4,399 bases of DNA, from the IMG/VR virus record IMGVR_UViG_2778261570_000013. The stretch is one strand, 5' to 3'. This stretch comes from a virus. Taxonomy: Duplodnaviria; Heunggongvirae; Uroviricota; Caudoviricetes. A model generated the notes under the pieces. The model worked only from the letters and a program-made list of their open reading frames with translations. It had not been told where the DNA came from and made no database searches. Shown here in pieces: positions 2,910 to 4,399 of this stretch (its first letter is position 1; each line of letters begins with the position of its first letter). The position numbers and the translations under genes are program-made.

Positions 2910-3269
2910 ATGCGTATAGAGTTTGTTTTGCCTTATCCGCCAACGGTGAACACCTACTGGCGACGTCGTGGCAGCACATATTTTGTATCAAAAACCGGTG
3001 AGCGTTATCGCCGTGATGTGGCGCTTATTGTTCGCCAGCAGCGGCTGAAATTAAACCTGTCCGGAAGGCTGGCGATAAAGATCATTGCAGAGCCGCCGGA
3101 TAAGCGCCGTCGTGACCTGGACAATATTCTGAAAGCACCGCTGGATGCACTGACGCATGCGGGGCTGCTCATAGACGACGAGCAGTTTGATGAAATTAAT
3201 ATTGTGCGCGGTCAGCTCGTTCCTGGTGGTCGGTTGGGGATAAAAATCACAGAACTGGAGTGCGCATGA
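2910..3269 (+). CDS. rusA: RusA-type Holliday junction resolvase, 119 aa
   Basis: Translation contains PDKRRRDLDN and KAPLDALTHAGLLIDD, matching the RusA catalytic-core motifs (compare DLP12 RusA PDRRRRDLDN / DALTKAGFWLDD, from memory). GAGG at 2900-2903 lies 6 nt before ATG 2910. Confidence 0.9.
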   Translation: MRIEFVLPYPPTVNTYWRRRGSTYFVSKTGERYRRDVALIVRQQRLKLNLSGRLAIKIIAEPPDKRRRDLDNILKAPLDALTHAGLLIDDEQFDEINIVRGQLVPGGRLGIKITELECA

Positions 3270-3955
3270 ATAACCAGTATTTACAGTTTGTGCGTGAACA
3301 GCTCATTATCGCCACCGCCGATTTGAGTGGAGCAACAAAAGGTCAGCTTGAAGCCTGGCAGGAGAATGCCATGTTTGATACCGGGCGTTACAGGCGTAAA
3401 AAAATCCGGTACCGCGATGAAGTGACCGGAAAAATGATCACGCTGGATAATCCACCAATCCCGGGGAAACAATCGCTGGCGAAGGGGACGTCAATTCCTC
3501 TGGTCAGTCCGGTTGAGTTTTCGACATCATCGTGGCGGCGGGCTGTTCTGTCTCTTGAAGAACATCATAAAGCCTGGTTGTTGTGGTGTTACAGCGGGAG
3601 TATTTGTTGGGAATATCAGATCGCGATAACACAGTGGGCGTGGAATGAATTTAATACTCAATCCGGTACCAGAAAAATTGCAGGGAAAACGCAGGAACGC
3701 CTGAAAAAATTAATCTGGCTGGCGGCGCAGGCAGTAAAAGCAGAACTTTTTGGTGGGGAAGGTTATGAATACCAGGAGCTGGCATTACTGGCGGGAGTGA
3801 CAACTAAAAACTGGTCCAAAACATTTACTCGTCACTGGGTTGCAATGAAACACATTTTTCAACGACTGGATAGTGAGGCTTTATTGTTTGTAATGAGAAC
3901 ACGTTCAAAACAAAAGACAGCATTTTCAAAGCAAAGTGTTGCAAAAGTAGATTGA
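3266..3955 (+). CDS. Putative late-gene antiterminator, Q-like (QuuQ-type), 229 aa from ATG 3266
   Basis: It sits directly after rusA (the rusA stop 3267-3269 overlaps the start) and directly before a promoter/terminator pair and a tRNA cluster, which is the canonical lambdoid Q position. GGAG at 3257-3260 lies 5 nt before ATG 3266; the track's 3260 start is a GTG. The family call is by context and weak recollection, not a motif match. Confidence 0.6.
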   Translation: MNNQYLQFVREQLIIATADLSGATKGQLEAWQENAMFDTGRYRRKKIRYRDEVTGKMITLDNPPIPGKQSLAKGTSIPLVSPVEFSTSSWRRAVLSLEEHHKAWLLWCYSGSICWEYQIAITQWAWNEFNTQSGTRKIAGKTQERLKKLIWLAAQAVKAELFGGEGYEYQELALLAGVTTKNWSKTFTRHWVAMKHIFQRLDSEALLFVMRTRSKQKTAFSKQSVAKVD

Positions 3956-3967
3956 AAGGCATATATT
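3939..3967 (+). promoter_or_regulatory. Candidate late promoter (PR'-like): -35 TTGCAA 3939-3944, 17-bp spacer, -10 TATATT 3962-3967
   Basis: Hexamers read by eye. It overlaps the 3' end of the Q-like gene, as PR' does in lambda. A -10-like TGATATTTT at 3979-3987 lies just downstream of the predicted start. Confidence 0.4.
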
Positions 3968-4017
3968 TCATGCAAATCTGATATTTTGCCGATTTTGTAC
4001 GTGATGGCAAAAGCAAA

Positions 4018-4047
4018 CAAAACCCGCCCACAAGCGGGTTTTGTTTA
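4018..4047 (+). terminator. Intrinsic terminator (tR'-like) about 45-70 nt downstream of the candidate late promoter
   Basis: An 11-bp perfect stem (4017-4027 ACAAAACCCGC with 4034-4044 GCGGGTTTTGT) enclosing loop CCACAA, with a U-rich 3' arm and TTTA tail. The symmetric A-tract/T-tract makes it potentially bidirectional. Confidence 0.65.
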
Positions 4048-4128
4048 TGCCACTTATCTCGGATAGACATGGTGAATGCGCTGGTGGAGGAAGTGAGGGT
4101 AATTTTTAACCAGGTGATTCTTGAATGC

Positions 4129-4157
4129 TTGCAACATTGATTTCGTAACGTTATTAT
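4129..4157 (+). promoter_or_regulatory. Candidate sigma70 promoter for the tRNA cluster: -35 TTGCAA 4129-4134, 17-bp spacer, -10 TATTAT 4152-4157, GC-rich discriminator
   Basis: Hexamers read by eye. The predicted start is 2-3 nt before the first tRNA 5' end, and CCTGCGCTC follows the -10, as in stringently controlled stable-RNA promoters. Confidence 0.45.
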
Positions 4158-4166
4158 CCTGCGCTC

Positions 4167-4242
4167 GGCCCTTTAGCTCAGTGGTGAGAGCGAGCGACTC
4201 ATAATCGCCAGGTCGCTGGTTCAAATCCAGCAAGGGCCACCA
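4167..4242 (+). tRNA. tRNA with anticodon CAU, Ile2 (lysidine) type, ileX/ileZ-like
   Basis: Hand-folded cloverleaf: acceptor GGCCCTT/AAGGGCC, D-stem GCTC/GAGC, anticodon loop CTCATAA, T-loop TTCAAAT, encoded CCA. It is near-identical to my recollection of E. coli ileX. Confidence 0.85.
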
Positions 4243-4243
4243 A

Positions 4244-4320
4244 CCGCCACTAGCTCATCAGGAAAGAGCGTCAACCCTTTAAGTTGAGTGTGCGAGGTTC
4301 GAGTCCCCGGTGGCGGTCCA
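4244..4320 (+). tRNA. Atypical tRNA-like gene, formal anticodon UUU (Lys-type) with C at position 33 and one T-stem mismatch; identity uncertain, possibly a pseudo-tRNA
   Basis: Acceptor CCGCCAC/GTGGCGG pairs 7/7, D-stem GCTC/GAGC, anticodon stem TCAAC/GTTGA 5/5 with loop CCTTTAA, T-loop TTCGAGT, T-stem CGAGG/CCCCG 4/5, encoded CCA. Only 1 nt separates it from the previous tRNA. Confidence 0.5.
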
Positions 4321-4322
4321 GT

Positions 4323-4398
<76 letters not shown>

Positions 4399-4399
4399 T

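Follow-up and report, generated by a model that had tools for sequence, protein, structure and literature searches.

Three unrelated families of Q proteins are distinguished, those of phage lambda, of phages 21/933W, and of phage 82 (bioRxiv 10.1101/651190). The late promoter of phage 82, 82 pR', contains an extended −10-like pause element that is nearer to the consensus than that of lambda; it is followed by a discriminator-like GCC element at +15 to +17 and an AT-rich stretch, and RNA polymerase pauses at +25/+26 with U at +25 (PMC5001585). The Q-binding element (QBE) sits between the −35 and −10 hexamers, and the stretch of 82PR' from −31 to +30 carries the QBE together with the pause element (PMC4914094).

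Here, we analyzed a 4.4-kb stretch of DNA (4,399 nucleotides, referred to as the window) from a lambdoid prophage, of which it forms the late-control end. It very probably comprises the late-gene control cassette of a phage 82-type lambdoid prophage, joined to a separate tRNA cassette. The features assigned below, from the Q gene to the tRNA genes, all lie on the plus strand.

Results

Gene context and the Q antiterminator gene

Along the window, a hok/sok toxin-antitoxin locus (Pfam Hok; Rfam sok with 113.5 bits) is followed by a DUF968 gene, then by rusA, the Q ORF, and three tRNA genes. Near-identical prophages and phages of E. coli (97–99% DNA identity to the window) continue 3' of the three tRNAs with a fourth tRNA gene (Gly), followed by the genes for holin, lysozyme, Rz, and terminase; the window itself stops within the tRNAs, and the late genes are known from these relatives only. 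The order from Q to the late genes in the relatives puts the element described below at precisely the site expected of a lambdoid late promoter. The cassette is present in hundreds of E. coli genomes: at least 80% of the region 3800–4399 was found in 884 of 5426 complete genomes. In the genomes carrying the cassette, annotation covers only Q and the tRNAs.

The Q ORF (229–231 amino acids) is open from a GTG at position 3260, and RefSeq relatives start at the ATG at 3266, giving a gene at 3266–3955. The deduced protein matched Pfam PF06323 with an E-value of 1.7e-92 over profile positions 1–216 of 220, and it shared 77% amino acid sequence identity with Q of phage 82 and 74% with Q of phage 434. 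The gene is annotated in relatives as antitermination protein Q, and the phage 434 gene product as 'Q82-like'. PF06323 was the sole Pfam hit, and no match was obtained to the lambda Q family (PF03589). When solved structures were searched by sequence with the window Q, no match from the Q82 family was found; the lone match, a phage lysin, was rejected as chance. The gene had been called Q-like in an earlier note on this DNA; judged by its sequence, it is a true antiterminator of the Q82 family.

The late promoter PR' and its pause element

The same note had listed two promoter candidates of one architecture, and both were recovered where it had placed them, with TTGCAA-N17-TATATT at 3939–3967 and TTGCAA-N17-TATTAT at 4129–4157. 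In the first of them, the predicted late promoter PR', the −35 hexamer TTGCAA (3939–3944) lies within the last Q codons, the 17-bp spacer (3945–3961) holds the Q stop codon, and the −10 hexamer TATATT (3962–3967) was assigned by pattern scan and conservation. The predicted transcription start AAA (3974–3976) begins 7 nt past the −10 hexamer, in the register of 82 pR'. With +1 set at 3974, GCC falls on +15 to +17 and a T on +25, as published for 82 pR'. The spacer is the probable location of the QBE; a spacer motif, AA..GA(T/C).(A/G)AA, is partly conserved, also in non-coding contexts, among sequences that do not include the 82 QBE itself. A TTGC-N6-TTGC repeat is present at 3931–3944, where the annotation of phage 434 suggests a CII-type antisense promoter; a credible −10 hexamer for such a promoter was not found after the repeat.

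Counted from +1, the window reads A1-A-A-T-C-T6-G7-A-T9-A-T-T-T-T14-G15-C-C17-G-A-T-T-T-T-G-T25. The predicted sigma70-dependent pause element (3979–3990) consists of TG-a-TATTTT at +6 to +14, with TG at +6/+7 and TATTTT at +9 to +14, and of the discriminator-like GCC at +15 to +17. From the register of 82 pR', pausing would be expected at +25/+26 (T and A, 3998–3999; PMC5001585).

The database record of phage 82 (X92588) ends at the Q stop codon, so the 82 pR' sequence was represented, as a proxy, by that of L104, an E. coli prophage in which the 3' end of Q is the same. The last 623 nt of its Q gene are 100% identical to phage 82 Q, and its nin region has the gene order of 82. Downstream of Q it reads TTGCAA-AACTGGATTAAAAAGCA-TATATT-TCATAT-AAATCTGATATTTTGCC-AATGTTGTAC, which is the architecture of the window, and the window sequence from +1 to +17 (AAATCTGATATTTTGCC, 3974–3990) is identical to the same stretch of L104. 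The −10-like sequence at 3979–3987 (TGATATTTT), for which the earlier note had suggested a role in pausing, fits the 82 pR' register and is a good candidate for this role.

Statistics taken within the window have to be read with care. The pattern TTGCAA-N17-TATWWT, defined post hoc from the sites already seen, occurs exactly twice at an expectation of 0.01, and none of 200 shuffles reached two occurrences. A generic sigma-70 scan gave 9 of 12 for each promoter, with a window total of 9 sites versus 5.0 ± 2.5, not clearly above chance, and the bare motif TGNTATNNT is not rare in the window (4 found versus 1.95 expected). With a post hoc pattern, modest scan scores, and a pause motif that is not rare, the case must rest on comparative and homology evidence; the weight of the pause motif comes from its position and conservation and not from the motif match.

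The sequence TTGCAA-17-TATATT, then N5-7, AAATCTGATAT(T/C)(G/T)T, G/C-C-C, and finally a hairpin terminator, was found in 13 genome loci. These loci, with Q identities of 60–93%, are from Escherichia, Shigella, Citrobacter, Klebsiella, Raoultella, and Buttiauxella. Phage 434 and Gifsy-1 have the same arrangement of promoter, pause element, and terminator. The pause element took the form TG(A/G)TAT(N)(T/G)T-G(C/T)C or CGC in most related loci examined; the exceptions were AG instead of TG in one locus (L009), and GTA or GTC instead of GCC in phage 434 and a further locus (L010). A predicted sigma70-type promoter at the 3' end of Q was conserved in all Q82-family loci examined but N15 (Q identity 25%), where no such promoter or pause element adjoins Q. 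At shorter evolutionary distance, 77 close relatives representing 37 distinct sequences were compared. All four hexamers of the two promoters were invariant in the 77 relatives, and the pause element showed three singleton variants among the 37 sequences; variation was concentrated in the terminator loop, in the length of the T-run, and in the spacer at 4051–4128.

The terminator tR' and the predicted short RNA

The strong terminator that had been placed at 4018–4047 proved to be a real stem-loop at 4015–4048. This intrinsic terminator, tR', is composed of an A-run, a CCCGC stem, a CCACAA loop, a GCGGG stem, and the tail TTTTGTTTAT; the segment 4014–4052 folds with −19.3 kcal/mol compared with −6.6 ± 2.2 kcal/mol for shuffled sequences (z −5.7). 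It escaped a simple terminator scan only because its tail is consumed when the T-run pairs with the A-run upstream. The terminator lies shortly 3' of PR' and ahead of the lysis and terminase genes of the relatives, and a terminator is annotated at the equivalent place in phage 434. Every related locus has a GC-rich hairpin with a T-run at the place of tR', and the stem sequences are unrelated; a hairpin and U-run that persist while the stems are unrelated are what selection on function would be expected to leave. The U-tract of the window is interrupted (UUUUGUUUAU) and most relatives have T6–T8; termination may therefore be leakier in this window.

The predicted PR'-tR' transcript would be a 6S-like RNA of approximately 73–75 nt ending around 4045–4048. 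The minimum free energy fold of 3974–4052 (−28.7 kcal/mol, z −5.1) has a first hairpin at 3984–4012, with a 5' arm that is the pause element copied into RNA, then an A-rich linker, and at its end the terminator. Equivalents of the first hairpin with other sequences are present in two related loci (L008 and L013), and the phage 434 and Flotzy types have none. A small ORF at 4004–4066, the homologue of which is a hypothetical protein in ON470580, was rejected, as its frame is shifted by the T-run length variants of close relatives. Sub-threshold Rfam matches to OrzO-P (27.4 bits), STnc370 (25.2 bits), isrJ (20.5 bits), and isrK (19.4 bits) were likewise rejected, being largely driven by the terminator. 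The isrJ match (RF01393) had an E-value of 0.047 in a 121-nt search and stayed below the gathering score of 37, and isrJ was not among the matches in the Rfam search of the whole window. The window RNA is a positional analogue of isrJ and not a member of its family. Identity with HnrS (EcOnc10-12), a multicopy prophage sRNA, is unlikely from the description of the latter, which is 66 nt long and nearly restricted to EHEC/EPEC.

The RNA of about 75 nt may additionally serve as a trans-acting sRNA in the lysogen, like StxS or IsrJ, a role that would be compatible with transcription from PR' and that we consider possible but unlikely. StxS is a PR'-tR' transcript that acts as an Hfq-bound regulator, and its authors proposed that this may be general (PMC7547250). 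In Gifsy-1 of Salmonella, a Q82-type promoter is the start point of the sRNA IsrJ (RF01393, 100 bits), which begins with AAAUCUGAUAU, and the isrJ match of the window RNA, albeit below threshold, extends over its full length. The pronounced structure of the window RNA, its free 5' end, its A-rich linker, and its terminator U-tail would also suit an sRNA. However, the RNA body is not conserved across the family beyond approximately the first 17 nt and the general shape of the terminator: it falls into four or more unrelated types, one of them lacking the first hairpin, which speaks against a common target in trans. The role of the pause element at the DNA level fully accounts for the conserved 5' segment, and the CUUCU needed for an HnrS-like pairing to the hha RBS is absent from the window RNA, as read from its sequence. 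A still broader proposal, which we offer as speculative and rather improbable, would unite the Q82-type PR'-tR' RNAs, including the window RNA and IsrJ, in one evolutionary class of riboregulators expressed in lysogens, with a 5' end fixed by the pause element and a body free to evolve new targets. The first hairpin, in which the pause element's RNA copy is paired again, may additionally influence pause escape or the loading of Q or NusA.

Conservation of the promoter outside the Q coding sequence

Q codons (V-A-K-V-D-stop) take in the −35 hexamer and half the spacer, and the generic promoter score is modest, as would be the case if the first promoter were a by-product of conserved C-terminal codons of Q, with the hairpin only ending the early Q transcript and no late promoter at 3939–3967. 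The distribution of the element makes this very improbable. In Hafnia yong2, Citrobacter phiNP, and E. coli Flotzy, with Q proteins of 28–35% identity, the sequence TTGCAA-17-(G/C)ATATT-N6-7-AATTTG(G/A)TAT(G/T)TTG(C/T)C plus terminator, which falls under the general form TTGCAA-17-(T/G/C)ATATT with AAT(C/T)TG(A/G)TAT, is found approximately 30 nt past the Q stop codon, i.e., in non-coding DNA. In Gifsy-1 the element follows an inserted module, approximately 840 nt past Q, and the mapped sRNA IsrJ starts there. As the element stands outside the Q codons in these four cases, overlap with the Q coding sequence cannot explain its conservation. Conservation is highest in the −10 hexamer, which is non-coding, and in the initial transcribed region.

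The tRNA cassette and its promoter

The region 4051–4128 between PR'-tR' and the tRNA cassette is a variable spacer and module junction: 40% of its columns vary among close relatives, which also differ by a 15-nt indel, and two loci switch to unrelated sequence directly after tR'. It is followed by the predicted promoter of the tRNA cassette (4129–4166), assigned by scan and conservation, with TTGCAA (4129–4134), 17 bp, TATTAT (4152–4157), and a GC-rich discriminator, CCTGCGCTC, extending to the tRNA 5' end. The −10 hexamer ends 9 nt ahead of the first tRNA. Such an arrangement, a GC-rich discriminator after the −10 hexamer and then the 5' end of a tRNA, resembles stable-RNA promoters. ARAGORN identified three tRNA genes at 4167–4398, with the anticodons CAT (tRNA-Ile2 of the ileZ type), TTT ('Lys', occupying the argN slot), and TGT (Thr); their Rfam tRNA scores were 72.5, 44.4, and 73.8 bits, and RefSeq labels them tRNA-Ile, tRNA-Lys, and tRNA-Thr.

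From a position near 4100, where the homology starts, through the first two tRNAs, the window is approximately 90% identical to Stx2 phages. The Stx2a phage F349 has the two hexamers and the 17-bp spacer of 4129–4157 unchanged, with one discriminator base different; the Q of this phage belongs to another family, and F349 has its own PR'/tR' upstream of the tRNA promoter. In a further locus (L007), TTGCAG and TATTAT are kept, and the 17 bp between them are of another sequence. In the homologous region of Sp5, a transcription start site was determined by dRNA-seq (PMC7547250). The predicted promoter of the window thus has the properties of an ileZ-type cassette promoter, namely conserved −35 and −10 hexamers, occurrence independent of the Q type, and a mapped start in a homologue.

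Two close relatives of the window Q have no tRNA cassette and retain PR'-tR'. Since PR'-tR' is kept without the tRNA cassette, and the tRNA promoter is found together with another Q, the two promoters are parts of distinct modules. Neither is a copy of the other, and they are alike in their hexamers and spacing only. By the same sequence comparisons, the tRNA cassette is a separate, horizontally mobile unit with a promoter of its own. It is reasonable to assume that the tRNAs would be expressed constitutively and raised further on induction.

It is extremely improbable that 4129–4157 is instead the Q-responsive late promoter and the first promoter drives an unrelated small RNA gene: the hexamer architecture is the same and the site lies upstream of all genes needing late expression, but neither a −10-like pause element nor a terminator follows 4129–4157 ahead of the tRNA, the site moves together with the tRNA cassette into Stx2 phages that have a Q of another family and an upstream PR'/tR' of their own, and it is the first promoter with its terminator that close Q relatives retain when the cassette is missing.

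Discussion

From the established 82 and lambda systems, we infer how the late-gene control cassette of the window would operate. Host sigma70 RNA polymerase would initiate constitutively at PR', at around position 3974. Sigma70 retained in the complex would re-engage TGaTATTTT (+6 to +14) via sigma region 2, and the complex would scrunch and pause at around +25. Without Q, the polymerase would escape and stop at tR' around 4045–4048, giving the 6S-like RNA of 73–75 nt. Q made from the upstream early operon would bind a DNA site in or beside the promoter spacer and load onto the paused complex; the Q-modified polymerase would be terminator-resistant and proceed through tR' into the tRNAs and the genes for lysis and morphogenesis. 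From the second promoter, the tRNAs would be expressed independently of Q.

The arrangement is a textbook one and contains nothing new in kind, and the value of its description lies mainly in annotation: PR', pause element, terminator, and tRNA promoter could be annotated by rule. The signature TTGCAA-N17-(T/G/C)ATATT-N6-7-AAT(C/T)TG(A/G)TATNTT, followed by a terminator, gives a consensus of the Q82 pause element across the family, and through it the sRNA IsrJ of Salmonella is linked to the Gifsy-1 late promoter.

The earlier note had compared the locus with the PR'/6S RNA/tR' layout of lambda. The logic of this parallel holds, as lambda shares the genomic position and the scheme of a constitutive late promoter, a promoter-proximal sigma70 pause, a short terminated RNA, and Q-dependent readthrough. 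As the closest model, lambda has to give way to phage 82 pR', which is nearer by Q family and by pause register. Lambda Q belongs to PF03589 and is unrelated to the window Q, which matched PF06323 only. The lambda pause element spans +1 to +6 with pausing at +16/17, in contrast to the element at +6 to +14 in the window; that of 82 pR' is located 8–9 bp further downstream than the one of lambda. The window locus is accordingly not placed in the lambda Q/PR' family. The 6S RNA of lambda comprises 194 nt, compared with approximately 75 nt predicted here.

Stx phages of the 933W/Sp5 type (ileZ-argN-argO) resemble the window in a terminated PR' transcript (StxS), which they make in lysogens and which is predicted for the window, and in carrying the tRNA cassette directly downstream, with its own promoter identical to 4129–4157 and a matching ileZ-type tRNA. 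They differ in their Q, which belongs to the Q21/933W family, in a PR'-tR' distance of 258 nt with an RNA that is processed by RNase E, in the second tRNA (Arg, versus 'Lys' (TTT) in the window), and in the downstream cargo stx. IsrJ of Gifsy-1 shares with the window RNA the TTGCAA-17-TATATT promoter, the initial AAAUCUGAUAU, a length of about 75 nt, an end at an intrinsic terminator, and a tRNA downstream; it differs in its body sequence (the 20.5-bit match), and the element is parted from Q by an isrK/c4-like/anrP module.

The closest likeness is to phage 82 as represented by L104. In L104, holin follows tR' without tRNAs, whereas the window has the tRNA cassette between tR' and the lysis genes; +18 to +21 is GATT in the window versus AATG, and the rest of the transcript body and the terminator stem differ. 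Common to both are the Q family, with the 77% identity given above, a promoter that overlaps the end of Q, and a terminator hairpin within approximately 50 nt.

Recombination junction and second tRNA gene

The spacer between the terminator tR' and the tRNA cassette (4051-4128) is a recombination junction. Among relatives that are elsewhere 97-98% identical this stretch is hypervariable and carries a 15-nt indel at about 4098-4112, and in two IMG/VR loci unrelated DNA begins directly after the terminator or from about 4090, with the tRNA cassette replaced. In phage vB_EcoM-606R7 (ON470580.1) a 'hypothetical protein' is annotated across terminator and spacer (3745-3879, equivalent to about 4004-4138 of the window). 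This annotation is probably a spurious call: the matching frame of the window meets a stop after 20 codons, and length variants of the T-run shift the frame.

The second tRNA slot of the cassette (4244-4320) differs in its anticodon between relatives: the window shares TTT ('Lys') with many E. coli genomes, whereas one comparison locus (L007) has TCT (Arg) and the Stx2a phage F349 has TCG (Arg, argN). In the window, C replaces T at position 33 of this tRNA, and its Rfam tRNA score was only 44 bits, compared with 72-74 bits for the neighboring tRNAs; it could be an anticodon-switched or decaying tRNA. In one Enterobacteriaceae locus (L009, about 2325-2380), a tRNA-like fragment (GCTGATTTAGCTCAGTAGGTAGAGC...) without a separate promoter starts immediately downstream of the T-run of tR'. 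It is probably a truncated remnant because ARAGORN called no tRNA there.

Elements overlapping and upstream of the predicted late promoter

On the minus strand, a TTGC-N6-TTGC repeat (TTGCAACACTTTGC, 3931-3944) overlaps the -35 element of the predicted late promoter PR' and lies inside Q codons. The equivalent site is annotated as CII-binding site and paQ -35 in the phage 434 record. The repeat is kept in several relatives and missing from others, and no convincing -10 element was found after it. Farther upstream, a type I toxin-antitoxin locus of the hok/sok type is present in full (794-1118), comprising sok (794-968, Rfam 113.5 bits) and a Hok/Gef ORF (963-1118, annotated as hokD in relatives), followed by a terminator-like hairpin (1187-1204). 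The AT-rich intergenic region at 1210-1560 harbors the best promoter-like site of the window (TTTACA-16-TATACT, 10/12, 1498-1525). A short conserved ORF (1577-1849), to which Pfam gave no match, lies downstream of this site.

The short transcript and its Gifsy-1 counterpart

In the first hairpin of the predicted PR'-tR' transcript (3984-4012), the transcribed pause element (UUUUGCC) pairs with a downstream GGCAAAA. Comparison of the window with L008, L013, and L016 revealed at least three unrelated sequence versions of hairpins at this position, and L016 shows what looks like a compensatory change; no first hairpin is present in phage 434, in L010, or in the Flotzy type. The Gifsy-1 segment NC_010392.1 (L004) matched the Salmonella sRNA IsrJ in Rfam with 100 bits. 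When L004 2501-2607 was set against window 3939-4048, IsrJ was found to start at a late promoter of the Q82 type (TTGCAA-17-TATATT, followed by AAATCTGATATCGTCGCC). IsrJ is not presented as the PR'-tR' RNA of Gifsy-1 in either the IsrK paper or a review. In Gifsy-1, approximately 840 nt lie between the antiterminator gene antQ and the promoter/IsrJ element, owing to an inserted module of isrK, a c4-like antisense RNA (Rfam matches C4 and c4-a1b1), and anrP. The '6S-like' PR'-tR' RNA of Gifsy-1 appears to be IsrJ.
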